Below the pieces are notes generated by a model. That model worked only from the letters and a program-made list of their open reading frames with translations. It had not been told where the DNA came from and did no database searches. Of a stretch of 64,000 bases of DNA, positions 30,618-48,349 are shown piece by piece. This stretch comes from a virus. A program made the position numbers and the translations under genes. Location of the stretch: IMG/VR virus record IMGVR_UViG_3300008267_007212; one strand, 5' to 3'. Positions within the stretch are counted from its first letter, which is position 1. Every line of letters begins with the position of its first letter.

Positions 30618-31408
30618 TTTAAACCTAGTTCTTTTCTAATTTTAGTAGCACTAATATCAGTAATCGACTCATCGAATGTTTCTTCGCCCGCTGAATATCC
30701 CACGCCACGACCCCAACCTATATGCACAATATTTGGAACTACTTGTATGTCGTATTGCCCTTGGTATAGTGGATCTAAGTCTCGACGAATAAATGATTTT
30801 ACTTTTTCTACTTCAAAAGGGTTAGACCCTTGCCATCCCTGTACATCACGAACTTGAATCATAACTTGGCCTGTGCGCTGTAGCAGTCTTTCGAATAGTG
30901 CGCGGTGACCATCATGCCATGGTTGCCAGCGACCCAACATCTGTACTGTTTCTTTTTTCCAATCAAAAGTAGGACGGCGACGATCATCGACGATATGCTC
31001 AGCAATAAAATCTGCCCACTTGGCAGCGTTCTGTTCGGTAATCCGGAAATCATAAACTTCGGGCTCCACAAACATTTTATTAGTGTCGGCGTAACGACCT
31101 TCACGTATAGTGTCCATCCATACAGTCCAATCTGCTTTAAAATTGTTACGCATTTCGACTAAGGGTGCAACAAAGTCGCACAGTGCATAATCTGTATTAC
31201 AAGTAGCAGACAACTCGGACATACGCTTGCTTTGCCTAATACGCCCTGCTTCGCTGAAATCCCAATCATTGAATTGTTTACGTATTTCATCTGCGTTAAA
31301 CCAAGTTACAGTTTTGCCATTTGCTTCTAGCAACTTTTTTAATTCTGTTGCCAAATAAGTTTTTCCTGCACCGGGCAGGCCCATTATTAAAATCTTTGAT
31401 GCACTCAT
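30614..31408 (-). CDS. cysC: adenylyl-sulfate kinase-like domain fused to an HxGH nucleotidyltransferase domain
   Basis: GLPGAGKT, NADEIR, DFSEAGRIRQ; C-terminal GRWQPWHDGH, ISATKIR. Confidence 0.72.
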   Translation of the reverse strand: MSASKILIMGLPGAGKTYLATELKKLLEANGKTVTWFNADEIRKQFNDWDFSEAGRIRQSKRMSELSATCNTDYALCDFVAPLVEMRNNFKADWTVWMDTIREGRYADTNKMFVEPEVYDFRITEQNAAKWADFIAEHIVDDRRRPTFDWKKETVQMLGRWQPWHDGHRALFERLLQRTGQVMIQVRDVQGWQGSNPFEVEKVKSFIRRDLDPLYQGQYDIQVVPNIVHIGWGRGVGYSAGEETFDESITDISATKIRKELGLK

Positions 31409-32025
31409 TATGTTTCCTTTCTTAAGTTTTCAAATAATTCTATATCTTTTCTAAAATAGTCTAAAATATGTGTGTTGTTTTTATTGTCTGTGAATCTTTG
31501 TTTTATTTCTCTTGTTAAAGATTGGCTATCAACCCCTGCTATATTTTTAAATCCTCAATCAAAATTTGTCCATCTAAGTATTTTTTGTGATTGAAGAAAT
31601 TTGTCTGTGTTTTCTATAGTTTTATCATAATTGTCATAATCACAGATAATCCATTGAATTTTTGTAATCTTTTCACCTAACATTTCATGATAACTTGCGC
31701 TATGATTGTCGATATACGGAAGATTTATAATATAATCTCGGAATTCTGCATTTACTCTGAATTCTGTGTGTAAATTGTTACGAATCAACCAATGAGCAAT
31801 TCCTTTATGCCTACGTTCAATCGGATCGGCTAAGTGGCTAAAAATTAATTTATTTTCCCAATCTATATCTTTATATTCTATTGGCTCCCATTTCATACCA
31901 TTTATAAAATTGTTATAAAATAAAGAAGAAACACATCGATAGTTCCGTAAATAAATTAAATGAGCAGTAGTGCAAGCTTGCCCCAAATTTGAATTTGTTA
32001 CAACTATTTCAGCATTAAAGGTCAC
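31408..32025 (-). pseudogene. sulfotransferase-like gene interrupted by an in-frame TGA at 31555-31557
   Basis: Frame continues 48 codons past the TGA to a TAATG overlap with cysC; the tail YFRKDIELF matches the paralogue's YLAADIELY. Confidence 0.65.
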
Positions 32026-33503
32026 GACAATACTTTTACTCCGTATAATTGTTCAAATCTGTCAGCGTCGACCCGGTCATTGACCATAGGTTCACCCCTA
32101 ATGTTTAGACTAGTATTTAATAGCATAGGACAATCTGTGACAATAAACCATTTTTCTAAGAGTTCTCTGATTCCCGATCCGTCCTTGGGCACAGTCTGAA
32201 CACGACTAGTTCCATCATGATGCACAATAGCAGGAAATAAGTCAGGACTACGGCAACAAGCGACTGACTGCATATAAGGACTATGATCGAAGCCAGGGGG
32301 CATATCAAAATACTCGCTAGCGTATTCTGCCAGAATAACTGGCGCAAAAGGTCTGAACTTTTGTCTACGTTTGATTTCATTTACTCTATCCTTAATATCA
32401 TTTCCTCTGGGGTCAGCCAATAAACTACGATTGCCTAATGCTCGCGGGCCGAATTCTGCGCGGCCACTTGCCACACCAACAATACGATCACGCAAAAGAG
32501 TATCCAGGGCGTCATTAACAGGGTAAGAGCCAGGAATAAGATGACCCAGATAAGCATCATTCCAATTAATGCGGCCGCCATAAACAAGAGCAGCGGCACC
32601 AAGACTAGACCCTGCATCCCCGGGATTAGGCATAATCCAAATATTTTCAAAGTATCCTCCTACACAGCTATTAATACTACAGTTAAGAGCAACACCGCCC
32701 ATGTATACCAGATTAGAACTCCAGTTAAAATCTTTTGCTCTACGCATGATATTTAACACTAAATCTTGGGTCAGATCTTGTGCGCTGGCTGCAATGTCCA
32801 TATCTCCTACGTAGGACAAATACTTTTGTTCTATGCCCGTATGAAGATTTTCTTTAAATTTAATTTCCCATTCATTGTGCAAAAATTTGGACTTAAATAA
32901 ATCAGTGAACGCTGGCACACCATATGCTGCCATACCCATAAGAATATATTCTTCTTCATTGGGTTTAAGACCAACACGTTCTGTCATTGCACTGTAAAAC
33001 AGTCCTATACTATGCGGATATTTTTGACGCCATAATCTTTTATAAACGGCTTTTCCTTGAACGTATTCTGCTGCCCAAATGCTTATTGTATCCCATTCAC
33101 CAATGGCATCGATTACAACCACCGTGGCTTTGTCAAATGGGCTTGTCTGAAACCCTGCAGCCGCGTGGCATAGATGATGATTGTGCGTTGAAATCGGTCC
33201 TGGGAAATTAGAAAATTCTTTGCCTATTTGCCTATTAAGAATCTGTCGAACAGTTAATTTATTCCATTCAACACCTTGACCGCTGTACAGTTGTCTTAAC
33301 TGTTTATTCCATGGTCGTTCATAGTAAGCAACATGGTCAATTCTATAATTAATTATTTCTTTGATTATACCAGGACTTAAATTTGGATCGTTTTTAATTT
33401 TACTATAGCGTTCACTGTGACCCGCATATAATATATTTCCATGATAGTCAATGACACTTAATGCAGCATCATGGAATCCTGCAGATATTCCTAAAATATT
33501 CAT
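32022..33503 (-). CDS. O-carbamoyltransferase (NodU/CmcH/TobZ family)
   Basis: GFHDAA, ERYSKIK, HHLCHAA, DAIGE, MGMAAYG, GGVALNC, EFGPRALGNRS, FRPFAP, LLNTSLN. Confidence 0.95.
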   Translation of the reverse strand: MNILGISAGFHDAALSVIDYHGNILYAGHSERYSKIKNDPNLSPGIIKEIINYRIDHVAYYERPWNKQLRQLYSGQGVEWNKLTVRQILNRQIGKEFSNFPGPISTHNHHLCHAAAGFQTSPFDKATVVVIDAIGEWDTISIWAAEYVQGKAVYKRLWRQKYPHSIGLFYSAMTERVGLKPNEEEYILMGMAAYGVPAFTDLFKSKFLHNEWEIKFKENLHTGIEQKYLSYVGDMDIAASAQDLTQDLVLNIMRRAKDFNWSSNLVYMGGVALNCSINSCVGGYFENIWIMPNPGDAGSSLGAAALVYGGRINWNDAYLGHLIPGSYPVNDALDTLLRDRIVGVASGRAEFGPRALGNRSLLADPRGNDIKDRVNEIKRRQKFRPFAPVILAEYASEYFDMPPGFDHSPYMQSVACCRSPDLFPAIVHHDGTSRVQTVPKDGSGIRELLEKWFIVTDCPMLLNTSLNIRGEPMVNDRVDADRFEQLYGVKVLS

Positions 33504-33601
33504 TTATAGATAAAAGGATCTTGCTTTCGCAATTCTTTGAGTTTGCGACGATAAGTGATTTCTAATTTAATTCTGTAGTATAAATTTTTAAGCCATTTCA
33601 T
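33500..33601 (-). CDS. 33-aa basic microprotein ending DPFIYK, coupled to the carbamoyltransferase
   Basis: MKWLKNLYYRIKLEITYRRKLKELRKQDPFIYK*; ATGA overlap; absent from the ORF track. Confidence 0.7.
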   Translation of the reverse strand: MKWLKNLYYRIKLEITYRRKLKELRKQDPFIYK

Positions 33602-33605: not shown

Positions 33606-34706
33606 TTATTTATTGAGTAAACTACTGCTGTAATCGTAACCAGGTTTTAATCTTTCGATTTGTTGATCATAGTAGTCTTTGTCCGACCAAGTATAAGAAT
33701 AGACAGAGCGTAAAATGTTTCCCGACCCATCATCGCATTGAATTGAATATATGTCTAAATAACTCGATAGTATGGGCCAAACTTCGCTGTATTTGATCGT
33801 ACCAAAACTTCTTTGTAAGTCAACTTGCCCCACTGAATGATATCCGAAATTATATTGATTATCTTCGGGATCGAATCCATTTCGTTCAAGCCATGATTTA
33901 AACCCAGACATTTCTTTGGTGTACCAAGGGTGAGGCCCATTATAACATACGTCCTGTGCCCATTCGATATCAAACTCGCCGCTGTAGTAACGTAGATGTG
34001 TAATAGCATCACAGGTTGTCTTGTCGACGTCAACTCCTTTTTCATCTCTATAAACTTCAAACAGTGTTTTGCCAATCTGTGTCCAATGTAAGTAGACTTC
34101 CCCGAATTTTCTATCATACCTTGATTCTTTAAAATTAGTTTTATATGTTGACGGAAATTCGTATCGCGAGGCATTTAGAAATGTAGTGATTTGACTAGGC
34201 CTAACCCACTCAGGCAATGTTGCTTGTTTACGTTGACTCAGCATTAAACTCTCTGCTTCGTGACATAGATTATTCAATTGTCTGATAGCGAATTTAGTTG
34301 TATAATCTGCTTGTTTATAATAATCACTGAGTCCCCACACAGTTCCTTGCAAAATTTCAAAATGGTTATGCAATTTGTTCATTAACTCTTGATTAGGATT
34401 TAATGTTTCAGGATTTCGTAGAGTAAAAGGGTAAAAGTTTTCTTCTATTTTATACTCGCCTTGGAAGAAATCATTTATTACATTCTTGACCCAGAATAGT
34501 TCTCTACAAATATATTCTAAATCTCTTTGACTGTCGGGAAATCCCAAGAAGCAAAAGTTTTTTTCCAGATATTTGTGTTGCTGTACAATTTCTTGTAATG
34601 CCGTAAACCATCGCTGAGCCATTTCATGCTCGTAGACATTGATAATATAGTCTAATGTTTTTGTTTTATCTAACGGATTTCGTAGTGTTATTATTACTTT
34701 ATTCAA
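33606..34706 (-). CDS. hypothetical protein in the modification operon
   Basis: 366-aa ORF; LHNHFE and LNNLCHEAE His/Glu motifs. Confidence 0.8.
   Translation of the reverse strand: MNKVIITLRNPLDKTKTLDYIINVYEHEMAQRWFTALQEIVQQHKYLEKNFCFLGFPDSQRDLEYICRELFWVKNVINDFFQGEYKIEENFYPFTLRNPETLNPNQELMNKLHNHFEILQGTVWGLSDYYKQADYTTKFAIRQLNNLCHEAESLMLSQRKQATLPEWVRPSQITTFLNASRYEFPSTYKTNFKESRYDRKFGEVYLHWTQIGKTLFEVYRDEKGVDVDKTTCDAITHLRYYSGEFDIEWAQDVCYNGPHPWYTKEMSGFKSWLERNGFDPEDNQYNFGYHSVGQVDLQRSFGTIKYSEVWPILSSYLDIYSIQCDDGSGNILRSVYSYTWSDKDYYDQQIERLKPGYDYSSSLLNK
33607..33614 (-). promoter_or_regulatory. late promoter motif AATAAATA, near-leaderless
   Basis: 5 nt upstream of ATG 33601. Confidence 0.4.
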
Positions 34707-35991
34707 TTGAATTCCACCATTTTAATACTTCAGGTTTTGTTGAGAGTATATCACGCATAGTATAACTATCATTTCGAATTTGTTCAAGTCTTTCGATTCT
34801 TGCTTTTCCTTTACGCAAACCAATTTGATATTCGTTGGGCCATTGTTCCTTAAAGGTGGGTCTAGTTTTTAGTTGGACAAGTATATCCTTTAACGGATTA
34901 TTACTAGTACCACTTATGATTTCGTCTGCCCAAGGATGTAATAATTCCCGGGGAAGAGATAAAGGTGACATAACTATGTCTGGACTAAAACTAAAAATTA
35001 CTTTCGCGAGAATATCGACTTTTTCTTCTTCTGCAAGTCGCTGGATATTAGCAATTTCGAACATGCCGGGCAAAGTGAGCGTAAAGTCAATTCGCATTTG
35101 ACGTCTGTGACTAGCGATTTTAACTCCTTCACGGAAGTTTGCAAGCCAAGAATTGTAGTCAAGGCCTGTTCTAATGTATTCTCCAATTTTTCCTGTGCCG
35201 TCGATACTTGCACAAATCTGCCAATCACGAAGCCCGCTGAGAATATCATTATAAAGATTGATACCTTTATAATTAATTCTTGATAAGTTTGTATTGTATC
35301 TAGCGTAAACATTTGGGCCGTCTCCTAATTCTATTATTCTCTGCATGTATCTCCAATGTTGCTCATACATGAGAGGCTCGCCCCCTACCCAATATACTTC
35401 TTCGACTCGATGCTCTTCGACGGCTTGACTAAACTCTGCCTCAATTTGTGTGTCTTGAAACTGTTCAATTTGTTTTTTGATTTCGGGCTGCATCCAATTA
35501 TTTTTTGGATCCGCCCAATTGATCATGTTGTGTTGTCGTTGCTCACTTTCCCAAGCACTGCTTAACATGTCTCCACACATTCGACATTTAAAATTACAAA
35601 GATTACTAAATCTGTAATCCCAGCTCACAGGCTTCATATCTGTTGAGCCGTCGTGGCAAGTTTTTTCCATTGCTTCATTGTACTTATGACCAAACAATTG
35701 ATTAAAATAGCTACGGTAAACATTGGTGTTTAGCAATTTGTCGTTGCATACTTCACACTCTGGCAGAGTTTCGCCGGCCATCATTCGACGCCGAACAGAT
35801 TTCATATGTTCACTATTCCAATGTTCATCTAAATTAATTGGTATATATTTTCCAGTACCAGACTTAGTATCTATGTACTGTTGAAAACTTTGTGCTGGTT
35901 CGCGACTTGCACAACACATTCTGCGTTCTGTTTGTGGACTCAGATATGTATGTGTCCACGGTGCAAGGCAAAGAGTAAGCGGTTTATTCAT
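34699..35991 (-). CDS. N-terminal-twitch radical SAM protein
   Basis: CLAPW...MCC, CEVC, CNFKCRMC, GGEP. Confidence 0.88.
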   Translation of the reverse strand: MNKPLTLCLAPWTHTYLSPQTERRMCCASREPAQSFQQYIDTKSGTGKYIPINLDEHWNSEHMKSVRRRMMAGETLPECEVCNDKLLNTNVYRSYFNQLFGHKYNEAMEKTCHDGSTDMKPVSWDYRFSNLCNFKCRMCGDMLSSAWESEQRQHNMINWADPKNNWMQPEIKKQIEQFQDTQIEAEFSQAVEEHRVEEVYWVGGEPLMYEQHWRYMQRIIELGDGPNVYARYNTNLSRINYKGINLYNDILSGLRDWQICASIDGTGKIGEYIRTGLDYNSWLANFREGVKIASHRRQMRIDFTLTLPGMFEIANIQRLAEEEKVDILAKVIFSFSPDIVMSPLSLPRELLHPWADEIISGTSNNPLKDILVQLKTRPTFKEQWPNEYQIGLRKGKARIERLEQIRNDSYTMRDILSTKPEVLKWWNSIE

Positions 35992-37189
35992 AGCCCATGG
36001 CCTTTGCTATTTCGGGATGTGTATCCATAAAATTTTGTTTTCGATAAGCATCTGTGCGCTTCATATTGTTTAAAAATATTTGCCCGTCGCTGCCTGCACC
36101 GTTTTCGATAAATTTAATTACATTTTCAATTTCTTGGTGATGTTCCTCTGTGTTCCAAAAAGTTGTTTTAAGTTTATTCAAAACTAATTCTTTGGCTGCA
36201 GGAGTTAACTGTTGAATACTCATATGGTCTGGGCTGTGCAACATATTAAAATAAATGCTGTCAAAAGGTTTGGTGCTTGCCCAGGCCAGTAATTCATCTA
36301 AGTAATATACATTTTGAATATTAATAGTGAAACAAAGTTGAGTAGTAATGTTAGGCGTGTCAACGTCACGGGCAAAATGAACTCCGTCGATTATTTCGTT
36401 GGCCTTATCCCAATCTGCCCCGTATCGTTCATATTCAAATCTTTCACCGACATTGTCGATGCTAAATGCAATATCTACACGACCAAAATTATTCCATAAA
36501 GCTGATTTTTGTATGCCTAACCCGTCGATAGTTGCATTGGTATTATAATGAATATCGATATGTTTACTATGGCCTGTTGCTACTGCATATCGTAGTAAAT
36601 CCCAGTGTTCTTCGATTAACCAAGGCTCGCCCCCGGTAAATTCAAAATACTTAATATTGGGTAGTAACGATTTTAAATTCTCCCAAAAATTAGGACTCTC
36701 CTCTGGCCACTTACCTTGTTTAAGCCAAGTATATGCAACATGTTTTTTCTTATCATGTCCTTGCGGCAAATACTCTAATTCTTCTGCCGCCCACTTACTA
36801 CTGCTCCAACTGCCGCATATCCTGCACTTTAAATTACAAATGTTGCCCAGCTTTAAATCAATGAACCATAATTGATCAGGAACATCGTTTTGCCAATCGA
36901 CCAATGGGTATAACTCTTTGAGTCTAACTTGACTGTGAATACGTTTACTAGTCCTGTTTGCGGCTTCCTCATCCCAGCATAATTTACAGGTATTTGGTTT
37001 TTCGCCGCGGCGGAATTGTCTACGTAAGTTTTGCATATACTCGCTAGTATATGCATCTTGTAATGTATGTCTTCTAAGATCAACACCAGTAATATCTTCT
37101 CTTGCAAGACAACAAGGTCTTGCAGTACCCATGGGGCTAGTCTCGATACTAATCCATGGCAACATACAAATACTATTAGGTAAAGTCAT
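35984..37189 (-). CDS. N-terminal-twitch radical SAM protein
   Basis: CMLPW...PCC, CKLCW, CNLKCRIC, GGEP. Confidence 0.88.
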   Translation of the reverse strand: MTLPNSICMLPWISIETSPMGTARPCCLAREDITGVDLRRHTLQDAYTSEYMQNLRRQFRRGEKPNTCKLCWDEEAANRTSKRIHSQVRLKELYPLVDWQNDVPDQLWFIDLKLGNICNLKCRICGSWSSSKWAAEELEYLPQGHDKKKHVAYTWLKQGKWPEESPNFWENLKSLLPNIKYFEFTGGEPWLIEEHWDLLRYAVATGHSKHIDIHYNTNATIDGLGIQKSALWNNFGRVDIAFSIDNVGERFEYERYGADWDKANEIIDGVHFARDVDTPNITTQLCFTINIQNVYYLDELLAWASTKPFDSIYFNMLHSPDHMSIQQLTPAAKELVLNKLKTTFWNTEEHHQEIENVIKFIENGAGSDGQIFLNNMKRTDAYRKQNFMDTHPEIAKAMGYE

Positions 37190-38523
37190 TTATTTTTTAA
37201 CTCGCTTAATTCAGGAAATGTGTTCCAAAAGTTTTCTCCCCTGAGATTATCAATTAAATTAATTTCTTGTTTAAATTTACCCCAGTGCTGTGAGCCGTCG
37301 GTGGACATTAGGAAATTAATGGCACTCTTGAATCCAGTTGTTGCTCGTTTTAATGGATCTTGCGGTTCTAACCATTCAATATGTCTTTCGTATGCTGGTT
37401 TAATTACTCGCTCTTTAAATTCTTGCGGGAACAAATCAATCCTATACCATTCAGGACTTTGACAAATATTCACATTAAAATCTTTAGGCTTAATAAATCC
37501 CATATCAACCCATTCTTTATGAAAATCTAAAACGTGCAATACATTCATAGCACTAATAGTAGATGCAATATAAAAATCTACGTGCGGTACTTCTTCCAAC
37601 ATACGTTCACGATTGCGAACTGTTTGTTTCCAGTCTGTGCCTTTTCGCATTAGTTCTGCTCTGGCTCCGCTGGCATCTAAGCTGGCTCCTACTCCTACAG
37701 TTCTAAAATGTTTCCAGTATTCGAATACATGTTTATCTTTAAAAGCTAATTCACTAAAATTTGTATTGTATTGAATACAAACGTCTGTTCGTCCTGCTTC
37801 AATAAGTTTTTCTAATAGATAATAGTGTTCCTTCATAATCAAAGGTTCACCGCCTGCAAAATAAACTTGTTCCAAGTAGGGAATATGTTCTTCCATTTGT
37901 GCAATCATATAATCTTCGTCGCCAGCAGCATATTCAATTCTGGCCAAATCTTTGCCGTTTACGTCAGGCACTCTATTGAATAATTTGACATGATCATTAT
38001 ACCAATTACTGCTAAAAACCGGGCCGCACGTTCTGCAACGAAAATTACACAAATTGCTAAACCTAACGTCCCAGTATCTGATTTTAAATTCTGGGTGTGT
38101 TCCGTCTGGCAGTGTTTTATCTACGTCTGCAATATTATGTCCGTAACTACGATTAGCATCATAACGCATACTAAAGAATCCGTTTTCTTCTTGTTCATAA
38201 CATTTGGTACATTGTTTAACTGGCTGATCTGCCATCATTAAACGTCTGATCTCTTTGTACCCTTCTTGGTTCCAAACTTCTTGCATTGAATTCTTTTTTA
38301 AATTTCCAATTGGATGAAAGTATTCTGCAAAGCAACAAGGATACACTCTGCCGTCTGGGTAAGCATGTTGGTGAACCCATGGTAACATACAAAAAGATTT
38401 ACTGTTCGTTAATCTGTTGATTTGAGTTTCTGTCAGCGTTGCAGGATCTGCAAATAATGGTTTCCTACTATTGTAATCGTAACCACGTTTATAAAATCTA
38501 TCAGTTTTTTTATCTTCGCTCAT
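37186..38523 (-). CDS. N-terminal-twitch radical SAM protein
   Basis: CMLPW...PCC, CTKC, CNFRCRTC, GGEP. Confidence 0.88.
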   Translation of the reverse strand: MSEDKKTDRFYKRGYDYNSRKPLFADPATLTETQINRLTNSKSFCMLPWVHQHAYPDGRVYPCCFAEYFHPIGNLKKNSMQEVWNQEGYKEIRRLMMADQPVKQCTKCYEQEENGFFSMRYDANRSYGHNIADVDKTLPDGTHPEFKIRYWDVRFSNLCNFRCRTCGPVFSSNWYNDHVKLFNRVPDVNGKDLARIEYAAGDEDYMIAQMEEHIPYLEQVYFAGGEPLIMKEHYYLLEKLIEAGRTDVCIQYNTNFSELAFKDKHVFEYWKHFRTVGVGASLDASGARAELMRKGTDWKQTVRNRERMLEEVPHVDFYIASTISAMNVLHVLDFHKEWVDMGFIKPKDFNVNICQSPEWYRIDLFPQEFKERVIKPAYERHIEWLEPQDPLKRATTGFKSAINFLMSTDGSQHWGKFKQEINLIDNLRGENFWNTFPELSELKNK

Positions 38524-39869
38524 AGTGTATTATACCAATCTGCCAGAGAAGGAAATGTTTTACAGAAGTCTTTACCTCTGCGCTGATCGTACTGTGTGTA
38601 AAATTGTTTGAAATCACTGCGTAATTTAGACAGCTCAAATGCATCGCTGTGTGGAGTTTTTACAACATCCAAGTAATCTATTAATCTCTGTAAATGATTT
38701 ATTTCATGCTCATGTAAATAGTTATGTCCTTTATGGCGAACAAGAAAATTAACCAATTGATCTTTGTATTTTGATTTAATATCATCAGGCAACACCAATG
38801 GACTCTGAAAACTAGGAAAACGTAAAATATTTAAAGTAAAATTAGGATAGTCTCGGCCGAATTCTTTCTTTAAGTCTATTAGAGTATCTAAGAAATCAGG
38901 CAATGTATCCAGGCATAATGCATTAATTGTACACATAATATGAAGCCCGCGAAACTTTTTACTGTTAACAAGCTTCATAATATTTTCTAACCACAGAGTA
39001 TAATTTAAACCATCTCGTATATATTCTGCTTGAATGTGATCACTTTCGTTGCTAGTATATAAGTCTATTTCTAAACCATCCACGCTGTCAATTAATCTAT
39101 CGATATCAACTTGATAACCTAAATTACTGTTAATAGCTAAACGTGTTTGGCTTTTACCTTTATTAGTTTTAAACCAATCGATTAGTTTCCAAGTTTCTCC
39201 ACTCATCAAAGGTTCTCCGCCCGTAATACGTAATTCCTTTAATGTGCGATGTAAGTCTGATTCCCACCATTTATGAAATGCTTCAACATAGGGATTAACT
39301 TCGCCAAATTTATATAGTTGACTATGATCATGAGTATGAGTAAAATGATTCCTGCCGTCACTAACCAATCCTGTATAAGGCCCGTTACGTTTGATGTCAT
39401 TGACCCATGTACTGCTAAAAGCAGGATTGCAATAACTACAAGCAAACTGACAAGTTCTGTCGAAAGCAATTTCAAGAGTTTGAAGATTGAAATCTTCTCT
39501 TGCTGGGGTTCTGTATGCATATGCCAAATCTTCATCATTGTAAATTACAGTTTTGTATACTCGATCGCTTATTGCATCTCGACCCATGTCTTCGATCTTC
39601 CAGCAGTACTCGCAACCTGACGGTCTTTCGCCCTTCTGCATCTGCTCTCGTTCCATTTTCTTTTTTTGAGTATTGTGCAATGCCCTAGGATTTCGTTCAA
39701 CATCGTCAATGTCTACTTTGTGCGGCAAGGGATGGTGGCAACTAGTAGTCATTCCGCTACCTAACCATATAGTAGCATTATACCATTTAGCTCCGCAAAA
39801 AGAATTTGATTTAATGTCGATTACTCTGCGTTTGTAATCTAAGTCTGTTTCATTGTTTATTCTTGGCAT
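38520..39869 (-). CDS. N-terminal-twitch radical SAM protein (CxAKW...SCH subtype)
   Basis: CGAKW...SCHHP, CEYCW, CQFACSYC, GGEP. Confidence 0.88.
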   Translation of the reverse strand: MPRINNETDLDYKRRVIDIKSNSFCGAKWYNATIWLGSGMTTSCHHPLPHKVDIDDVERNPRALHNTQKKKMEREQMQKGERPSGCEYCWKIEDMGRDAISDRVYKTVIYNDEDLAYAYRTPAREDFNLQTLEIAFDRTCQFACSYCNPAFSSTWVNDIKRNGPYTGLVSDGRNHFTHTHDHSQLYKFGEVNPYVEAFHKWWESDLHRTLKELRITGGEPLMSGETWKLIDWFKTNKGKSQTRLAINSNLGYQVDIDRLIDSVDGLEIDLYTSNESDHIQAEYIRDGLNYTLWLENIMKLVNSKKFRGLHIMCTINALCLDTLPDFLDTLIDLKKEFGRDYPNFTLNILRFPSFQSPLVLPDDIKSKYKDQLVNFLVRHKGHNYLHEHEINHLQRLIDYLDVVKTPHSDAFELSKLRSDFKQFYTQYDQRRGKDFCKTFPSLADWYNTL

Positions 39870-40890
39870 AGTTGTTAAATTTAGTTGTGAACTCGTCTAT
39901 TAAATTTTTATCCTCACCCGGTGGTTGTGTGGATATCATTACATTCCTATTGTGTCTACAAATATCTTCGGCTTCATTTAAAAATTCTTCTAAATTAGAA
40001 TTGCAAAGAAATTCTACCACATCCACTATTCGATCCAGTCGTTTATCGTTGTCGTCTATTAGATCAAACGATTCATCTATTAGATGACCAAACGTTTTAA
40101 ATCCCTGATTGTGTAAATCTCTATAGAATCCATAGTTTGCCACTGCTACAAATGGGTGCCCAATTTTAAGTGGCTTGTAAATTTTTTCTGTTCTAAAGCT
40201 ATAAGGCAAATAAAAATTTGTTTCAGTGACAACACTGAAATAAGAATCTTCAAAAATATTTGCAAATATTTGTCCGTCGGGCCAGTCGTTTAATTTATAT
40301 TTTCCGTTTATTACATTATCACTGTTGACTTGAAATTGGTAGTCTTTGGGCAAAAATTTATTGTCGTAGAGAGCAGACCATAAACTTCGGACTAACAAAT
40401 CTTTTTTATTTAATTTTTCTATTAGTAATGAACGATGCGATCTTTCTATTCCATTTAAAAAATTAAACAAAAATGTCTTATTCCTTTTTAAAAAAATTCG
40501 ATCAATTATCTTCGAATCTCTTTTTTCGAGCTCGGTTGTTGTACGTCCTAAAATATACCTAAATATGTCTACGGTTACATGTGCTATACCCGGGGGCAAA
40601 TCTCCCGACGACATTATAAACGGTAGACGCACAAAATCATTCCATCCTATTGCCTTTAATGTATCTAACACTGTATTGGTACCTTCGTGTAGCATACTTA
40701 GTATAAACAAATTTTTGCTGTCCAAGGAAATAATATTTTTTTTAATAATATCCCCCGTTAATAAAACAATACCATTGTTTGAAATTAAACTTTCTACGGT
40801 ATCGTGCTCCATTATTTCAAAGTAATCGGGGTACCAATTAAAGAATTCTAAATCGTCGTTTTTTAACGAGTTAATTTTAATCTTTTGCAT
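39850..40890 (-). CDS. GT-B-like protein (GT10/exostosin-like C-terminal motif)
   Basis: NGIERSHR, YFSVVTET, RTEKIYKP..HPF, GFKTF..IDESFD. Confidence 0.55.
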   Translation of the reverse strand: MQKIKINSLKNDDLEFFNWYPDYFEIMEHDTVESLISNNGIVLLTGDIIKKNIISLDSKNLFILSMLHEGTNTVLDTLKAIGWNDFVRLPFIMSSGDLPPGIAHVTVDIFRYILGRTTTELEKRDSKIIDRIFLKRNKTFLFNFLNGIERSHRSLLIEKLNKKDLLVRSLWSALYDNKFLPKDYQFQVNSDNVINGKYKLNDWPDGQIFANIFEDSYFSVVTETNFYLPYSFRTEKIYKPLKIGHPFVAVANYGFYRDLHNQGFKTFGHLIDESFDLIDDNDKRLDRIVDVVEFLCNSNLEEFLNEAEDICRHNRNVMISTQPPGEDKNLIDEFTTKFNNYAKNKQ

Positions 40891-42022
40891 TTAAAAGATC
40901 CTTAACTTTGTCAGGAAGAGTAATGTTTTTTCTATCTTCCCATTGTTTTAAAAAGTGTAAAAATTCTGAAAATAAAGTTTTATTAAATTTGGTTGAAGAC
41001 AATATACTTAAAACAACATCAACATTCTTTATATTTTTATTATCTAACAAAGTTAATAACACAGTTTCTGCTTGTTTTTTAATCTTATCCGGAGTTGCTT
41101 CAATGCTTTGAATTCTGGGATTTTGACCATATGACAATACCCAATGAAATTTATCTTTATATTTTTCTATTCTGGGCAGTATTACAGTAGATGAGAAGTT
41201 TTCAATATCGCAGAGAGTTAAATTAGTCATCAGACTTGATATATTAATTTTGATATTTTCTTCGCTGCGTTCTAATAGATAGTCCAAATTCTTCAAAAAT
41301 AAATCATAATCAAGACCATATCTAACAAATTCTGATATTTCATCACAAGAATCTAAACTGGCGTTTATTACAATGTATTTGAATTTATGTCTATTAGATA
41401 GTAGTTTATCTATTGCTTTTTTATCGACCATTAAATTTGAAGTTACATCTAAAATTCCTTTATGGTCTATCGTATCTAAGATATTAAAAAAATTTTTATT
41501 TATTAATGGTTCACCACCTATTATTCTCAAAGTTTCAAATTTCACAGTGTTTAACAATTCTAAATTTTCATCTATTAATTGCTTATTTTTAATATCTACA
41601 CTGTAGACATGTCGATCTGTAAACAATTGATATTTTTGATTTTGTATATCTTTTTCCCATTGACTGCTAAACTTTGGATTACAATACATGCATTGCATAT
41701 TGCAAGCATTGCCAACATTAATTTCAATTACCTTAGGCGATTTATTATTTTTATATTCATTAAATGTCGATATATCAAATTTTTTTAAGAATTGAATTCT
41801 GAGACTGGTGCCGTTTGTTTTTTCAGAATTCCAACAATAAGAACAACTTGGATCTTTTACATTGTTTAATAAATTTTGTTTTTGATGATCAATGATTTCA
41901 TTGTAATCGTTGACAAATTTTTCTGGCTTTGCTTTACAGCAACCATATACATAGTTATAACTAGTATTGATGATTAGCTCATCCCATTTAGCCGGACAAA
42001 AAGTGTCAGGTAGTTGTTGCAT
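40877..42022 (-). CDS. N-terminal-twitch radical SAM protein
   Basis: CPAKW...GCC, CSYCW, CNMQCMYC, GGEP. Confidence 0.88.
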   Translation of the reverse strand: MQQLPDTFCPAKWDELIINTSYNYVYGCCKAKPEKFVNDYNEIIDHQKQNLLNNVKDPSCSYCWNSEKTNGTSLRIQFLKKFDISTFNEYKNNKSPKVIEINVGNACNMQCMYCNPKFSSQWEKDIQNQKYQLFTDRHVYSVDIKNKQLIDENLELLNTVKFETLRIIGGEPLINKNFFNILDTIDHKGILDVTSNLMVDKKAIDKLLSNRHKFKYIVINASLDSCDEISEFVRYGLDYDLFLKNLDYLLERSEENIKINISSLMTNLTLCDIENFSSTVILPRIEKYKDKFHWVLSYGQNPRIQSIEATPDKIKKQAETVLLTLLDNKNIKNVDVVLSILSSTKFNKTLFSEFLHFLKQWEDRKNITLPDKVKDLLNAKD

Positions 42023-43397
42023 AATATTTGCATTCCTTCCAAAAATCTACCATTTCTGGAAATGCCAAAATAAAGTTAGTTCCCCTGCGTCGATCATGTT
42101 CATTAAAAAACTTATAAAAATTTGCTTTTTGCATTTTAACATAATCAGGATCCAACTTGCTACCTTCTCTCATCCAATCTATCACTCTTTGTAACCGCTG
42201 GACTTCATAGTCTTTGAATCCGTGAAATGGAGTTTCGGGCTGTTCCATTTTTGTAATCATAAAGCTCCACGATGTCTCTAGCTGATCGACATAGCTTTCA
42301 GGTAATAGTTGTAAACTTTGCCATTCTGGTTTACGTAGAATTGGAGTATCAAACCAGACACGCTGATATGTTTTGCTGTGTATTTGCCTAAGTCCCAGTA
42401 TGCAACCTAATAGATTTTGAAGTCCCATTACATTTAAATTATTCATAGTAATTATAAATGTTAGACTACTACGATTCGGAACTTCATATAAAAATCTGTT
42501 AACGTTATCCCAAAATCTTTCAAAATTTAATCCATGTCTGATATATTCAGCCTGCATAAAAGTAGCATCTATACTAACATACTGCATGAAATGCTCGATT
42601 TTTTTATTCTCATTGTCGCACAGTCTTTTTACATAATCCAGATACTTGTCAAATAATGCAGGCTCAACACTGAAATTAGAAGTTACGTTTAAATGTAGCT
42701 TGGGACTAGGATTTTCTAATACGTAATCAAAAACACGATACGTATTTTTATCCATTAGTGGTTCTCCACCAGTCATCCTAAAATGTTCTAGTTCAGGATA
42801 TAATTTTGGCCACCAAGACCAAAAGGCATCGACATAAGAATTATCTTCTCTTGCAGGGATAACTTTTCTATCTCCCGTAAAATGACTGGGATCATTGTGC
42901 GGAGGATTAGTAGGAAAAGCTCCGCTACGTTCTACGTCACTGGCCCAACTGCTAGAGTATTGGGGACTACAATAACTACAAGCCAGATTGCAAGCATTAT
43001 TAAAATTAACTTCTACATAGGAAGGAAGTACATCTTCATCCCCAGTAGAATTAGCTATTGTTTCAAAATCTTTTGCAGCCCATGGTTCCCCACTACGATA
43101 ATGTCGATCGCTTAAATTGCCCAAATCTTCTTGTGTCCAACAATAACTACATTCTTGTGGGCGCTCATTATGGAGCATAATCTTACGCTGCTCTTTTTTG
43201 TAAGGTGTATTATGTAATGCGCTGGGATTATTTTTTACTAGCGTTGAGTCAATTTTATGTAAAGGTGGATGATAACAACTGTTATTGAGACCCGTAGGCA
43301 AATGCAAGCTTACTTGTTTCCACTTTGCTAAACAAAGAGCAGGACCTAATTTAGATTTTGCTTCTTCAGCCGAGTTTAAAAAAACACTTTTAGACAT
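42006..43397 (-). CDS. N-terminal-twitch radical SAM protein (CxAKW...SCY subtype)
   Basis: CLAKW...SCYHP, CSYCW, CNLACSYC, GGEP. Confidence 0.88.
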   Translation of the reverse strand: MSKSVFLNSAEEAKSKLGPALCLAKWKQVSLHLPTGLNNSCYHPPLHKIDSTLVKNNPSALHNTPYKKEQRKIMLHNERPQECSYCWTQEDLGNLSDRHYRSGEPWAAKDFETIANSTGDEDVLPSYVEVNFNNACNLACSYCSPQYSSSWASDVERSGAFPTNPPHNDPSHFTGDRKVIPAREDNSYVDAFWSWWPKLYPELEHFRMTGGEPLMDKNTYRVFDYVLENPSPKLHLNVTSNFSVEPALFDKYLDYVKRLCDNENKKIEHFMQYVSIDATFMQAEYIRHGLNFERFWDNVNRFLYEVPNRSSLTFIITMNNLNVMGLQNLLGCILGLRQIHSKTYQRVWFDTPILRKPEWQSLQLLPESYVDQLETSWSFMITKMEQPETPFHGFKDYEVQRLQRVIDWMREGSKLDPDYVKMQKANFYKFFNEHDRRRGTNFILAFPEMVDFWKECKYYATTT

Positions 43398-44448
43398 TTA
43401 ATAATAACTTCTTTGAAAATTTGTGAAAGGGTAAAGAATCAAATAAATTTTCTTTTCTAATTTTATCTAGAAATAAAACATGTGAAATCGTATGGATTAT
43501 CAATGTTTTATTGTAATTATTTTGTATTCTTGATTCTATTGCGTCGTACATTGATTGTGTAATATAAGGCCTAATACCAGCCAAACACTCAATAGCTAAC
43601 GTTTGTAATTCATCTGGGATTGCATTTAAGTTTAAAAAGTCTGGACCATTTAATAAATTTAATTCAATTTGATAATCTTTAAAGTATGAAAGTAACTTTG
43701 GTAAATGCCAAAAATTCAATATACTAACAGTGGGAGAAATTTTTATACGTAAATTTGTAAGTTGTAACGATGCTAAAAGTTGTAGATTTTTGTTAACATC
43801 TTCCCAAGATGCACCAGATCTGATATATTCAAATTCTTTTTCTATTGCATCTATACTGCATGTTACATTGATTGATTTGAATTCTTTCCAAATATCAGTA
43901 ATTGACGCATCTTTATATTTTAGGGTTGTCAAATTTGTATTATACATTAATGCTATATTTTTTGCTTGACCAGATTCTATATATTTTTTTAAAATTGCCC
44001 AATGATCCCCATTTATAAATGGCTCTCCTCCAGTAAAATATGCATGTCGGACCGATGGAACCGTTATTATATCATAATAATCGTCCAAACTTTGATGTGT
44101 GATCGGTAATCCGAGCTCAGCAGCCCATTGGCTACTCGCATCTGCATTACAAGACCTGCATTTTAAATTACATAGGTTGGTATTTCTTATATCTAAGAAC
44201 TGTAGTTCATTATTATCTATTGCATTTTTATTAAAAAAAGTTCTATAACTTGGTATCTTTTCCTGCTCTGCATCGATACATGTTTTGCATTCTTGAGGTG
44301 GTACACCAGTTTGTAGATCTTCAAACAAGTTACGATTACCAATCTCTGTCATTGGTTTTCTATAGTTTGAATCTATTAGACAACACGGAGAAACTCCGTT
44401 TGAAAAAATTGTCAGACTATTTTTATATGCTGCACATTTCCAAGTCAT
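43390..44448 (-). CDS. N-terminal-twitch radical SAM protein
   Basis: WKC...PCC, CKTC, CNLKCRSC, GGEP. Confidence 0.88.
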   Translation of the reverse strand: MTWKCAAYKNSLTIFSNGVSPCCLIDSNYRKPMTEIGNRNLFEDLQTGVPPQECKTCIDAEQEKIPSYRTFFNKNAIDNNELQFLDIRNTNLCNLKCRSCNADASSQWAAELGLPITHQSLDDYYDIITVPSVRHAYFTGGEPFINGDHWAILKKYIESGQAKNIALMYNTNLTTLKYKDASITDIWKEFKSINVTCSIDAIEKEFEYIRSGASWEDVNKNLQLLASLQLTNLRIKISPTVSILNFWHLPKLLSYFKDYQIELNLLNGPDFLNLNAIPDELQTLAIECLAGIRPYITQSMYDAIESRIQNNYNKTLIIHTISHVLFLDKIRKENLFDSLPFHKFSKKLLLNV

Positions 44449-45092
44449 AGTTGTTGTATCAAAATTAAAGCAAACTTTTGCTGTTCGTTAGCAGTGGGAT
44501 GCCGAGTGGGTGTCATGATATCGTTAAATGAAACTGATAATTTTGTGTTGAACTCATGCCCAAACACAGAAAAATCGTAGTATTTTATGTGTTGCGAATC
44601 CATCCACAATCTAAACAAATTTATCAACATGCCTGCTGTATTAGTTTGATCAATGAAGTTGTTTTCTATCATGATCTTGTGTAACTTTGGCAGTGTTGAT
44701 AGATGTTGTTGATTGTGTTTGTCTGTGATAAATTTTACATTGTTTTTGTGTTCTACAAATACATCTGGATCGCTGTGATCACCTAGCAAAACGTAACTGG
44801 GGAGGATTTGCAACATAGAATCTTGTGTGTAAAAGCCTGCTCGGGCTGGATTGGTCCACCTTACAATTACTGTGTCAATATCCTGTTGATGGTGGGAAAG
44901 ATAATGATACCCGACCTCCACTGTTCTCTGTACAGAGCTTCCAGGTTCAGCCAAGTTTAAATAGTCTAGTTCTAGGTGATCAGCCACATAGTGACCAAAT
45001 GCATGTTCTGTGTTTTTTGGGTCTTTAAACACGCTTGCAGTGCCTATGCCGTGACAAAAACTATCTCCAAGAACCAGTAACTTTTTTACCAC
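44445..45092 (-). CDS. SGNH/GDSL-like hydrolase or acyltransferase
   Basis: LGDSFCHG, NLAEPGSS, TRHP. Confidence 0.7.
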   Translation of the reverse strand: MVKKLLVLGDSFCHGIGTASVFKDPKNTEHAFGHYVADHLELDYLNLAEPGSSVQRTVEVGYHYLSHHQQDIDTVIVRWTNPARAGFYTQDSMLQILPSYVLLGDHSDPDVFVEHKNNVKFITDKHNQQHLSTLPKLHKIMIENNFIDQTNTAGMLINLFRLWMDSQHIKYYDFSVFGHEFNTKLSVSFNDIMTPTRHPTANEQQKFALILIQQL

Positions 45093-46012
45093 CCTTCAAC
45101 TCGTCGAATAACATCTAACTCAGTTATTGTTGTTCCTATATTACGATGCACTGCTTTATAATGATGCTTGAAAAATGCGCTTTGATCTGCTGTCATATCA
45201 ACAATAGGTAGCCCTAGTCGTGTACGTAACGTTTGACCGATATTCTCACAAGCAGGCTCTGCATCTTTACTAAAGCTGTTCCATAAATATGCAAGATGAT
45301 CAAAATCTTGTACTTGTTTATAATCCCACTCTCTTAACATAGTCATGTACGTACCTAGGCGAGCACCGTATATGGCCCACCATCCATTTTCCACGTCTCG
45401 GCCGACACTTTGCCAAATACATAAATGATCATAGTTTCGAGCATGAACTTTTTGTTCAAACTCTTGCAGGCTGGGTTTCTTTCCTCGATCTAAACACATC
45501 TTAACACCTTCGCGGAATCCTGCTCGCCATGCTTGAAAAGGTGTTGCATTGGGAAATGTAGTACTATAGCAATCATGCATGGGAATATACTTAGGGTCAA
45601 AACAAAACTCTATCACGGTTTCGTCTCTGCCGTCAGTGGCTTCATGTGTTCGCATATTGTTAACGAACTCTTTGGTCCAGCAACTTATTCCGCCGTTGCC
45701 GTACATTAACCCATTGATATGATTGCGAGCCTTCCATCTAAACACACAATCTTGATTATTGTCGTCTAATTTAAGTTGGAGATTAAAAAACTCAGCGTCA
45801 GGTATATTGTCTCCGTCTATTAGCACGAACCTATCAGTATCGCTGGCCGCGGCGGCTGCTTTATGTGCAGCATCACTGCCTTTAACTCCATCCACACGTT
45901 TAGCCCACGGAATTAAATTTTGAATCTTAATCCAAAATTCTTCTTTTTTTGGTTCGTCGTAGGTTAAAAATATACAATCGAGATCTGCAATATCAACGAT
46001 TTTTGTAGTCAT
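45086..46012 (-). CDS. GT-A fold glycosyltransferase-like protein
   Basis: DCIFLTYDEP, AAHKAAA, VLIDGDN (DxD), YGNGG, AWRAGFREG. Confidence 0.7.
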   Translation of the reverse strand: MTTKIVDIADLDCIFLTYDEPKKEEFWIKIQNLIPWAKRVDGVKGSDAAHKAAAAASDTDRFVLIDGDNIPDAEFFNLQLKLDDNNQDCVFRWKARNHINGLMYGNGGISCWTKEFVNNMRTHEATDGRDETVIEFCFDPKYIPMHDCYSTTFPNATPFQAWRAGFREGVKMCLDRGKKPSLQEFEQKVHARNYDHLCIWQSVGRDVENGWWAIYGARLGTYMTMLREWDYKQVQDFDHLAYLWNSFSKDAEPACENIGQTLRTRLGLPIVDMTADQSAFFKHHYKAVHRNIGTTITELDVIRRVEGW

Positions 46013-46418
46013 AGTGTTCTGTGTCTTTAAAAGTTTCGCCATCTTCCAAAATTATGCCAGATAAATTTTTTACTGTTTTAAAACCAGTCTGACTTTTTTC
46101 AAGTTGAGGAGTTTGATTTAAGTTATCTTTTTTGATCGAAACTTTATCGTTTTGTATTCGATACTTGTAGCATTCCATATACACGGATTTATAAGTATTC
46201 TCATCTACTACAATATAATCACCAGAAAGGCCGTACATTTCTGCATCTTTTACTGTAGGGGATGTAGCCGTGATGTTTCCACTTTCATCGTAGTATATTC
46301 GATATTCGTATTCAATTAGTGCAGGTTTATCTATTAGCCCTAACTCGTCTAATTGTCGAATTATTTCTTCTAAGGTAGTATCTTCATTGACTGTTATGGT
46401 AGGTTCGTTCGTACTCAT
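45993..46418 (-). CDS. hypothetical protein
   Basis: ORF within the operon. Confidence 0.7.
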   Translation of the reverse strand: MSTNEPTITVNEDTTLEEIIRQLDELGLIDKPALIEYEYRIYYDESGNITATSPTVKDAEMYGLSGDYIVVDENTYKSVYMECYKYRIQNDKVSIKKDNLNQTPQLEKSQTGFKTVKNLSGIILEDGETFKDTEHYDYKNR

Positions 46419-47235
46419 TTAATAATTCCTCTGTTACATATGATTTATCATAATAATGCACTGGGTTGTATTGATTTAGATTGTGAATTTTAATCATGTG
46501 GTTATCTCGGTCATGCATTACTATGTCTTGCCAAGACTGATCGGTATTACCCCAACCATTGATACCAGGTTTCAAATGTATAAAATTAATGAAATCCATG
46601 GTAGGTATAGTGCATAGTTCTACTCCTATCGTCTTTGCTGTTACTGCATACAGTGCATCGGTGCTGGGTATATCTTCTCGACAATTTTTTAATATATTCT
46701 CTTTGAGATAATCCCAATTTCTTAAAATTCTTTGTGCTGTTAAAAAGAAATCACTGGCTGTTTTACTATATCTAAAATACATCAAACCATTATATATGTC
46801 CGGAAGATCATTATCATCAAAAAATTTTCTATAAAGTCTTGATGTAGATAATTCTTGTCTATAAGTTCTGCAGCCAGTGCTCAATACAACATCTCGCAGT
46901 CTAAAAGCATTCCACCAATGGTCAATATTCCGTGTAAATAATAAGTCACTTTCTAATTTAATAGTTTCTTTAAAAGGACTCAGTGAAAAAACTTGATATT
47001 CATTGGATAGCTTCCATGTACTACCTGTGTCGTTTTCGTCATAGGGAAGTTCGATAATGTGATCAAAAACTTTTGTGTGTTTATCTGTGATTTGATCGAT
47101 AGTATTTTTATCACAGATCACTGCATACTTAGCACCCGGGTGTAGGCTTTTTACATTCATTGCTTGGCAATACGCAAGTCTAAGATAATCTATCTTATCT
47201 GTATTCTGTGCAAATGTAAGAAAACCTTTACTCAT
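46384..47235 (-). CDS. GT-A (GT8-like) glycosyltransferase-like protein
   Basis: SPFKETIKLESDLLF, YNGLMYF, STD, HLK. Confidence 0.65.
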   Translation of the reverse strand: MSKGFLTFAQNTDKIDYLRLAYCQAMNVKSLHPGAKYAVICDKNTIDQITDKHTKVFDHIIELPYDENDTGSTWKLSNEYQVFSLSPFKETIKLESDLLFTRNIDHWWNAFRLRDVVLSTGCRTYRQELSTSRLYRKFFDDNDLPDIYNGLMYFRYSKTASDFFLTAQRILRNWDYLKENILKNCREDIPSTDALYAVTAKTIGVELCTIPTMDFINFIHLKPGINGWGNTDQSWQDIVMHDRDNHMIKIHNLNQYNPVHYYDKSYVTEELLNEYERTYHNSQ

Positions 47236-48049
47236 TACAAACAGCCTTTACAAAGCTATCAAATTGTTCTGACAATAGATAGTTCTTATCCATGATATGC
47301 AAATTTTGTCTGCTGATTACATCTGCCCGGTGTTTGTACTTAACAGTTAAAAATTTATTTTTGAGATCGATAGACTCAATGTTGTCTTCTATGGTCAACA
47401 TTAGCCAAGGTATACTTTGCTCAGGAGTCAGTGTATGGCCATTTAAAATGATATTGGCCATACTGAATGCAAAATCGTTTCTATAATTTGTTTCTCTAAC
47501 AGCAAACAAACTTCTATAATATCCATAGTTTCGTTGTATACGGCCCACTAAATCGAAAAACATTTTAGCTCTTGTAGTTTTTCGAAATAGTACTACAGTA
47601 GCCCAAACCATTGGCAAACTCGCAGGCCCCATTTCATCTGTGTTAAGTCCCAGTGGGGTCTGCATGTTATACATTAATCTATAGTCAAAGGGTTGGTCGA
47701 GTAACTTTATCAAGCTATTGTTGAGCATCAAATAATCAGTGTCTATTAAAATGGTTTCATCATATGGACTTAAATCGAATGCTCGATACCTATCAAAATT
47801 TTTCCATTCATATAATTGCTGATCTTTGGAAAATCTGACGTTGCCAGTTTTACTATCAACTCGAATTATTTGATCATAATCAAATTTTAATTCGGCATCT
47901 ATGTCTGTGACTATCGTTACAGGAAGGTTTGTATTTTTTTTGATTAATTTACTTGTTTGGTCTGCTATATCGGTATATTTGACTTTTCGACTGTTAAAAG
48001 CAAATACCAACACACCTTTAGATTTTTCTAATTCGCTTGAGTTCTTCAT
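47228..48049 (-). CDS. GT-A (GT8-like) glycosyltransferase-like protein
   Basis: SPYDETILIDTDY (DxD), WATVVLF, RNDFAFS, HIMDK; paralogue of the neighbouring gene. Confidence 0.68.
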   Translation of the reverse strand: MKNSSELEKSKGVLVFAFNSRKVKYTDIADQTSKLIKKNTNLPVTIVTDIDAELKFDYDQIIRVDSKTGNVRFSKDQQLYEWKNFDRYRAFDLSPYDETILIDTDYLMLNNSLIKLLDQPFDYRLMYNMQTPLGLNTDEMGPASLPMVWATVVLFRKTTRAKMFFDLVGRIQRNYGYYRSLFAVRETNYRNDFAFSMANIILNGHTLTPEQSIPWLMLTIEDNIESIDLKNKFLTVKYKHRADVISRQNLHIMDKNYLLSEQFDSFVKAVCNE

Positions 48050-48344: not shown

Positions 48345-48349
48345 AAAAT

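Follow-up and report, generated by a model that had tools for sequence, protein, structure and literature searches.

What is a run of seven radical S-adenosylmethionine (SAM) genes doing in the genome of a virus? The question is raised by a 64,000-nucleotide stretch of DNA from IMG/VR record IMGVR_UViG_3300008267_007212 (hereafter the window), whose proteins include PHROG matches to an exonuclease, a thymidylate synthase and a tail fibre, consistent with a source in an uncultured freshwater T4-like phage. Seven radical SAM open reading frames (ORFs) occupy positions 34699-44448 of the minus strand and are transcribed in the order r7, r6, r5, r4, r3, r2, r1 (Table 1). An initial annotation had described them as seven near-tandem radical SAM paralogues and had read them as a diversifying enzyme array. 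All seven indeed scored above the cut-off of one NCBIfam family, NF033640, and "near-tandem" is accurate, since the only ORF of another kind is x5, between r5 and r4. Every junction in the array is an overlap of 4-20 nt, so that the genes look translationally coupled. As set out below, r6, r4, r3, r2 and r1 are an ancient, fixed and colinear core, and r5 and r7 are accessory cassettes inserted into slots between core genes. It is this widespread and strictly conserved five-enzyme core in large aquatic phages, with no chemistry assigned to it, that makes the locus of interest.

Scanning IMG/VR with r3 recovered 39 related viral loci at 50-98% identity, in which we labelled each gene by its best match in the window. 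Every locus held four to seven family members, and the core order r6-r4-r3-r2-r1 was the same in all 39; with u366, the gene that follows r1, the order held wherever the DNA reached. The whole cassette begins with a fibre gene, a Gly/Ser/Thr-rich fibre gene, s108, GTc, GTb, s141 and GTa, continues through r6, r4, r3, r2, r1 and u366, and ends with a carbamoyltransferase, a kinase/nucleotidyltransferase, a dCMP-deaminase-like gene and GTd. Its position was always behind fibre genes, and variation was limited to accessory slots, which lie between GTa and r6, between successive core genes and between u366 and the carbamoyltransferase. Over the 39 loci, best matches of the five core genes had median identities of 69-78% (r6, 69.5% in 39/39 loci, 33 of which passed a stricter orthologue filter; r4, 73.5% and r2, 73.6%, each in 39 loci; r1, 77.9%).

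In contrast, the paralogues within the array were far less alike, with 31% identity between r4 and r6 and 20-30% for every other pair. In a FastTree phylogeny of 181 family members, for which 12 viral loci were sampled, r1, r2, r3, r4 and r6 each formed a clade of their own (local support 96-100) that held one member per sampled locus (12/12; 11/12 for r6). A phylogeny had been proposed as the means of separating duplication from acquisition, and in the tree each core paralogue keeps to its own clade, with orthologues at 69-78% identity as against 20-31% for paralogues. Since bacterial sequences lie inside each core clade, the core paralogues predate this phage lineage. Relative to the closest relative, the ratio of nonsynonymous to synonymous substitution rates (dN/dS) was 0.02-0.10 for core genes (r6, 0.034; r4, 0.05; r1, 0.098) and 0.12 for r5. 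We saw no degenerate copy, which disposes of the possibility that most of them are decaying, and CxxxCxxC and GGEP were retained in all 153 distinct orthologues. With the order fixed in 39/39 loci, these low ratios and bacterial members in each clade, the term "diversifying" is not supported. What survives of the earlier proposal is that each copy acts on a different position or substrate, the natural reading of copies that are distinct and intact.

Fusion proteins found elsewhere join the same neighbours in operon order, r6 to r4 (P0122), r3 to r2 (P0121) and r2 to r1 (P0126), which argues that the core paralogues work together. When r3 and r2 were modelled as a complex, the score was 0.00, which is uninformative either way. 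A fixed set of five paralogues, fused elsewhere in colinear order, would suit a single substrate modified in five steps that are successive or specific to a position.

The slots, by comparison, hold r5, x5, SGNH-like ORFs, further N_Twi genes and unknowns, in combinations that vary between loci. Orthologues of r5 occurred in only 9 of the 39 loci and formed a virus-only clade in the tree. No related locus had an r7 orthologue (0/39; best match 30%), and relatives of r7 at 45-55% identity were found on other large phage contigs of 340-360 kb. In the window, r7 and an SGNH-like ORF occupy the slot between GTa and r6, and neither is there in the related loci. Pieces identical to r7 and its junction were present in independent freshwater runs of 2019 and 2024-25, so r7 is not an assembly artefact. 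Contigs of four sequencing runs gave fragmentary cover, and the apparent joints in them, short-sided and of low likeness, probably reflect cross-mapping of paralogues and were given no copy-number use; no RNA run was listed among the sequencing runs matching the region. The accessory copies are the two that had been singled out as more AT-rich, and their G+C content (GC) bears this out (r5, 0.269; r7, 0.300; remaining array copies, 0.36-0.39). The slot of x5 also differs between loci, and x5 paralogues stand near other N_Twi genes in a complete relative. We found no Pfam, NCBIfam, PHROG or PDB match for x5. Its sequence FEDSYFSVVTET ... TEKIYKPL resembles the FENS...TEK motif of GT10 fucosyltransferases, with no profile or PDB support. 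The SGNH-like ORF at 44445-45092, recognised by eye, had no Pfam or NCBIfam profile match.

We then consider the family itself. NF033640 (N_Twi_rSAM, "twitch domain-containing radical SAM protein") has a curated cut-off of 170 bits, and r1-r7 match its hidden Markov model end to end at 199-406 bits, as does r8, a member outside the array, above the same cut-off. The invariant columns in an alignment of r1-r7 are four N-terminal cysteines (C-x~18-C ... C-x2-C), CxxxCxxC, SSxW and GGEP. Toward the C-terminus, D425 and R428 are each at least 90% conserved over 72 family members, in agreement with the D..R ending noted initially. The expected two or more subtypes were also recovered, with SC(H/Y)HP in r4 and r6 and CC in the other copies. 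The same four-cysteine N-terminal domain, CxxxCxxC, GGEP and D..R characterise r1-r8 and the family alike, and nothing separates the array copies from it.

The auxiliary Fe-S domain had been placed at the N-terminus, and this holds: Pfam SPASM maps to the N-terminus of r1-r3 (r3 residues 45-109, E 5e-14), and the four invariant cysteines lie ahead of the core in all copies. The Pfam scan detected no SPASM domain in r4-r7, where the aligned cysteines do show it. Residues 45-123 of r3 align weakly, in NCBIfam, to the C-terminal portions of enzymes such as PqqE, NirJ and StsB, and nothing useful came from searching the PDB with the single sequence of this domain from r3. Each array copy has 4-6 cysteines ahead of the core and the seven-cysteine SPASM motif is incomplete; just four invariant cysteines leave room for one cluster, which makes the domain twitch-like rather than a full SPASM. 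Behind the radical SAM core there are only 1-3 cysteines, and these are not conserved. In canonical SPASM/twitch enzymes (anSME, BtrN, MoaA) the auxiliary domain is C-terminal to the core, whereas in the array copies it is N-terminal. Because an N-terminal auxiliary domain is what defines NF033640, this reversed order is not a new architecture: it is already catalogued, in a family without an assigned function.

NF033640 has many members. Searched as a profile, the seven copies retrieved 6791 clusters (50% identity; E<=1e-30) among 1.84 billion representatives, and r3 had 5894 homologues at E<=1e-5. We found no paper on NF033640 in the literature, and a profile search of the PDB found no solved structure. 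None of 14 well-known control genomes carried a member over the cut-off, which speaks against a characterised family with a housekeeping role. A megablast search of the array against isolated phages gave no match, and tblastn with r3 returned four records only, at 22-26% identity.

The AF2 model of r3 (pLDDT 94.6) had as its best Foldseek matches anSMEcpe, GDGT-MAS, CteB, SkfB, viperin, MoaA, DesII and BlsE, in every case over the core barrel only (TM 0.3-0.4). The closest of these, anSMEcpe (PDB 4K36-4K39), matched at E 7e-6 over ~260 core columns, but with TM 0.33-0.38, and it differs in that its SPASM domain is C-terminal and holds two auxiliary clusters and that its substrate is a protein. 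The best non-family profile matches were MoaA, viperin, QueE and ArsS (E 1e-7 to 1e-12); MoaA (GTP 3',8-cyclase) and viperin gave the strongest such hits for the core domain, yet the array scores far under their cut-offs (24-44 bits, compared with 284 for MoaA). The auxiliary cluster of MoaA is C-terminal and has three cysteine ligands. BtrN (2-deoxy-scyllo-inosamine dehydrogenase; PDB 4M7T/4M7S) has, as is predicted for the array enzymes, a single auxiliary cluster housed in a half-SPASM twitch domain, and its substrate is sugar-like. Positions 7-85 of the seven-copy profile align weakly to BtrN residues 164-245 (E 0.08). The twitch domain is C-terminal in BtrN but N-terminal in the array and the sequence similarity is marginal; any sharing of BtrN-type chemistry by the array enzymes is putative.

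What the enzymes act on is the next question, and here the evidence leans to a sugar-bearing molecule. The NodU/CmcH-type carbamoyltransferase gene is present in 34 of the 39 loci, and carbamoyltransferases recur beside N_Twi genes in bacterial loci. Characterised NodU/CmcH-type enzymes O-carbamoylate hydroxyl groups of sugars and antibiotics. The genome scan for homologues used an alignment of the r3 clade; among 130 bacterial neighbour ORFs the commonest were radical SAM proteins (9), PhyH dioxygenases (8), methyltransferases (6), carbamoyltransferases (3) and GT1 enzymes (3), which looks like a tailoring context. Two family members, P0156 (E 6e-17) and P0214, are fused to GT2 domains. In arrays of Bdellovibrionota-type metagenome-assembled genomes (MAGs), a conserved 230-aa protein is nested between radical SAM genes (two examples are 41% identical), and its best PDB hit, a weak one (E 0.065), is the GtrB-like GT2 enzyme Sll0501. 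A joint profile of the paralogues GTb and GTc likewise gave weak matches in which 10 of the 11 listed PDB hits, including the best (glycogenin-1), were glycogenins of family GT8 (E 0.08-0.4, DxD aligned). The kinase-nucleotidyltransferase, found in 26 loci, shows weak NMN-adenylyltransferase matches in NCBIfam at residues 154-225. SDR epimerase/dehydratase and DegT aminotransferase genes lie 1-3 kb past the cassette end on the opposite strand. Finally, in marine pelagimyophages, glycosyltransferases and "radical SAM cassettes" have been placed in a host recognition cluster beside fibres (Zaragoza-Solas et al. 2020, PMC7029224).

Taken together, we consider it most likely, albeit tentatively, that the array enzymes tailor a glycoconjugate stepwise. 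Judging from the motifs, each enzyme would cleave SAM with a [4Fe-4S] cluster held by CxxxCxxC and would carry one fully cysteine-ligated auxiliary [4Fe-4S] cluster in its N-terminal twitch-like domain. The core enzymes would work in series on one shared sugar-bearing substrate, which the glycosyltransferase-like proteins of the cassette would build, fed by the kinase-nucleotidyltransferase, and which the NodU-type enzyme would O-carbamoylate. In the proposed scheme each paralogue abstracts a different hydrogen atom, and the auxiliary cluster may then take the electron; as in BtrN and anSME, the outcome would be of the oxidation, epimerisation, dehydration or cross-link type. The auxiliary clusters of BtrN and anSME serve two-electron oxidations, and related enzymes carry out epimerisations, dehydrations and cross-links. 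Accessory copies would add lineage-specific steps, and the accessory genes would make the decoration differ from one phage lineage to the next. Given the fixed place of the cassette behind tail-fibre genes, its product probably decorates a fibre protein or the host envelope.

Several observations weigh against such a glycoconjugate pathway. Among the structures nearest to r3, enzymes with protein or peptide substrates (anSME, CteB, SkfB) are no less prominent than those with sugar or nucleotide substrates. For GTa, GTb, GTc and x5 the assignment as glycosyltransferases is weak or motif-based, and none of the four has a Pfam, NCBIfam or PHROG hit. In a Bacteriovoracaceae chromosome, eight copies lie between obg and rplU and no sugar gene was recognised there, and many members in an Elusimicrobia MAG bear long TPR/Sel1 arrays, which usually bind proteins. 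The gene r8 lies ~2.4 kb upstream of a GTP cyclohydrolase I gene (4232-4978), a hint of nucleotide chemistry. Lastly, the putative electron-sink role presupposes an auxiliary-cluster ligation read from just the four invariant cysteines.

The first of these points also speaks for an alternative, namely that the enzymes are maturases that modify a phage protein directly (cross-links, epimerisations, side-chain oxidations) while the sugar enzymes act separately. Candidate targets would be the Gly/Ser/Thr-rich fibre (48403-49341), the fibre at 49354-51006, a 4006-aa protein, s108, s141 or a 33-aa peptide encoded within the operon. We regard this as unlikely, although it is the alternative that fares best. 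Besides anSMEcpe, CteB and SkfB, SuiB is a protein- or peptide-modifying structural neighbour; the numerous TPR/Sel1 fusions of the Elusimicrobia MAG and one Peptidase_S8 fusion among family members point the same way, as do the constant position of the cassette behind fibre genes and the conservation of the 33-aa peptide. On the other hand, the systems that mature peptides made by ribosomes and modified after translation (RiPPs) have a constant adjacent precursor, whereas here we saw no conserved precursor-like peptide that goes with the core throughout: the small ORF examined, of 33 aa, occurs in 11 distinct loci, about half of those that are distinct, and is coupled to the carbamoyltransferase and not to a radical SAM gene. 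We saw no RiPP recognition element or leader-like repeat, and the fusions to GT2 domains, like the GT2-like genes nested in arrays, favour sugars.

Nucleotides or DNA bases appear a distinctly improbable substrate. Hypermodification of this kind would be tied to the 7-deazaguanine and pyrimidine genes of the genome, and it draws on r8, which overlaps both flanking ORFs (65-709 and 1868-2323, neither of known function) in a three-gene arrangement that, like its place upstream of GTP cyclohydrolase I, would suit such chemistry. This arrangement recurs in a complete 357-kb relative (L201:4764-6827), in which the flanking ORFs are 43% and 66% identical and the radical SAM proteins just 25%. A dCMP-deaminase-like gene and a kinase in the cassette and an early-looking, sigma-70-type operon promoter in place of TATAAATA also fit. 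The profile matches to MoaA, viperin, QueE and ArsS, which might be added to this side, span only the common radical SAM core, however. Bacterial arrays lie in ordinary chromosomal contexts, with members fused to TPR or GT2 domains, the cassette is tied in position to fibre genes, and we saw in it neither a DNA-binding enzyme nor one for base exchange (DpdA/TGT-like).

Recent duplication within the phage under diversifying selection, or decay of the copies, is suggested by the tandem arrangement and the two AT-rich members but is hardly credible and was rejected, since paralogues just 20-31% identical fall into orthologous clades of their own with bacterial members, motifs are intact in all orthologues and dN/dS is 0.02-0.12.

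Among the systems already described that come close is the host recognition cluster of pelagimyophages and cyanomyophages; the paper on it mentions radical SAM cassettes in one sentence, without identification of the family, the five-gene core or the link to a carbamoyltransferase (PMC7029224). Our cassette combines the strictly conserved five enzymes with only a few partner genes in a phage operon that is compact and transferable, and so offers enzymologists a defined set to co-express. It may also show phage biologists by what means a surface decoration next to the fibres is built or varied in large aquatic phages. Returning to the glycoconjugate reading, it is possible, if doubtful, that the five paralogues form a multi-step radical pathway making an undescribed modification, that is, several C-H functionalisations on one glycan or glycosylated fibre protein, and that phages use this pathway to set or vary host recognition. 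Were that true, it would mean new radical SAM chemistry across thousands of aquatic phages and predatory bacteria; should the chemistry be new at all, the payoff would reach hundreds of uncultured phages and several bacterial phyla.

Table 1. Positions of the array genes, their cassette partners, the operon promoter and r8 in the window; loci are counted among the 39 related viral loci.
Feature	Position	Strand	Description
sigma-70-type promoter	48350-48393	-	perfect TTGACA-18-TATAAT at 48393-48364
s108	48018-48344	-	small conserved first operon gene; 26 loci, median identity 66%
GTc	47228-48049	-	weakly GT8-like, DTD motif; 31 loci
GTb	46384-47235	-	weakly GT8-like; GTc paralogue
GTa	45086-46042	-	DGD motif, tentatively glycosyltransferase-like; 31 loci, median identity 74%
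SGNH-like ORF	44445-45092	-	accessory; by eye, GDS motif near N-terminus, LLVLGDSFCHG
r7	43390-44448	-	352 aa, GC 0.30; accessory N_Twi radical SAM; NF033640 237.8 bits
r6	42006-43397	-	463 aa; core N_Twi radical SAM, SCYHP subtype; NF033640 325.6 bits
r5	40877-42022	-	381 aa, GC 0.27; accessory N_Twi radical SAM; NF033640 199.3 bits
x5	39850-40890	-	346 aa; accessory, not radical SAM, between r5 and r4
r4	38520-39869	-	449 aa; core N_Twi radical SAM, SCHHP subtype; NF033640 288.4 bits
r3	37186-38523	-	445 aa; core N_Twi radical SAM; NF033640 405.6 bits
r2	35984-37189	-	401 aa; core N_Twi radical SAM; NF033640 333.6 bits
r1	34699-35991	-	430 aa; core N_Twi radical SAM; NF033640 294.5 bits
u366	33606-34706	-	conserved unknown 366-aa protein; 36/39 loci, always directly after r1
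33-aa basic peptide ORF	33500-33601	-	MKWLKNLYYRIKLEITYRRKLKELRKQDPFIYK; stop overlaps carbamoyltransferase start (ATGA)
NodU/CmcH-type carbamoyltransferase	32022-33503	-	Pfam Carbam_trans_N E 3e-40, Carbam_trans_C E 2e-46
P-loop kinase (APS-kinase-like) with nucleotidyltransferase-like C-terminal part	30614-31408	-	Pfam APS_kinase E 7e-11
GTd	27638-29299	-	553 aa; closes the cassette, last gene in many loci
r8	706-1878	+	eighth N_Twi radical SAM gene, outside the array; NF033640 246.2 bits

In the predicted operon promoter, the -10 box falls within the loop of a hairpin of 13-15 bp with a T-run behind it (48345-48402, minus strand), so that a terminator-like element lies over the promoter. 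This layout was kept in most of 21 distinct related upstream regions, in which the stems differ and still pair. Copies of the T4-type late motif TATAAATA are fewer than expected in the window (2, compared with 9.8), and one of them lies 22 nt before the fibre gene at 49354-51006. Given its sigma-70-type promoter, the cassette may rely on host polymerase in its unmodified form and be transcribed before the fibres.

Among the partner genes, u366 gave an AF2 model with pLDDT 87, for which Foldseek found no match; a search of the ESM Atlas with u366 produced no usable hit. VIA-align returned borderline cyclophilin-like rows at Z 8-9, a range common for unmatched models, and the fold may be a cyclophilin-like barrel into which a four-helix bundle is inserted. 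The conserved 33-aa ORF ends in a ...YRKKLKELRKRDPFIYK tail, and loci that lack it have in the same place an SGNH-like gene ending ...GGHPLELGHQRIAEKINEHI. For GTa, the third-ranked Atlas cluster (score 0.99) is automatically named "Glycosyltransferase 2-like" and the top two "hypothetical protein"; Pfam and the PDB gave it no support, its profile yielding chance-level PDB matches only. Single-sequence PDB searches with GTa, GTb, GTc and x5 found nothing. GTd is paralogous to GTa in its C-terminal half (26% identity, E 2e-11), and its N-terminal half contains a repeated YRDFDF(Y/T)W(R/H)P motif.

Ten radical SAM genes had been counted in the window, of which the eight N_Twi members are solid and two others less firm. 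The ORF at 8704-9630 has CxxxCxxC and a 55-bit match to a tungsten-cofactor radical SAM maturase model. In the QueE-like ORF at 9611-10498, QueE models match the first ~50 residues only, under cut-off; CNFTCSGFGC stands in place of CxxxCxxC or Cx14CxxC.

Two complete relatives of 354 and 357 kb (CheckV 98% and 100%) carry 11 and 12 members over the cut-off, respectively, made up of the core plus scattered copies. In the larger one (L198, L200), scattered N_Twi copies are interspersed with core replication and recombination genes; of those inspected, one has an SbcC-like gene on one side and an SbcD-like gene on the other, and a RecA/UvsX-like gene is flanked by others. Three MAG contigs (L041, L044, L045) considered as bacterial homes of the core were rejected, as they hold the whole phage cassette including fibre genes. 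Together with L040, these contigs, from Legionellales, Haliscomenobacter and Polynucleobacter bins, carry the cassette wholly or in part and are either mis-binned phage DNA or hints at hosts. The Elusimicrobia MAG CAIRTQ01 (L080, L087, L097, L098, L103, L104, L107) contains dozens of tandem TPR-N_Twi genes of 560-1160 aa, each joining a long TPR array to one N_Twi module, and Sel1-repeat fusions occur in other Elusimicrobia MAGs. Directly upstream of the fibre genes in the window, the ORF of the 4006-aa protein (51843-63863, minus strand; frame open on to 63998) may encode a VrlC-like giant protein of the kind described for pelagimyophage host recognition clusters.

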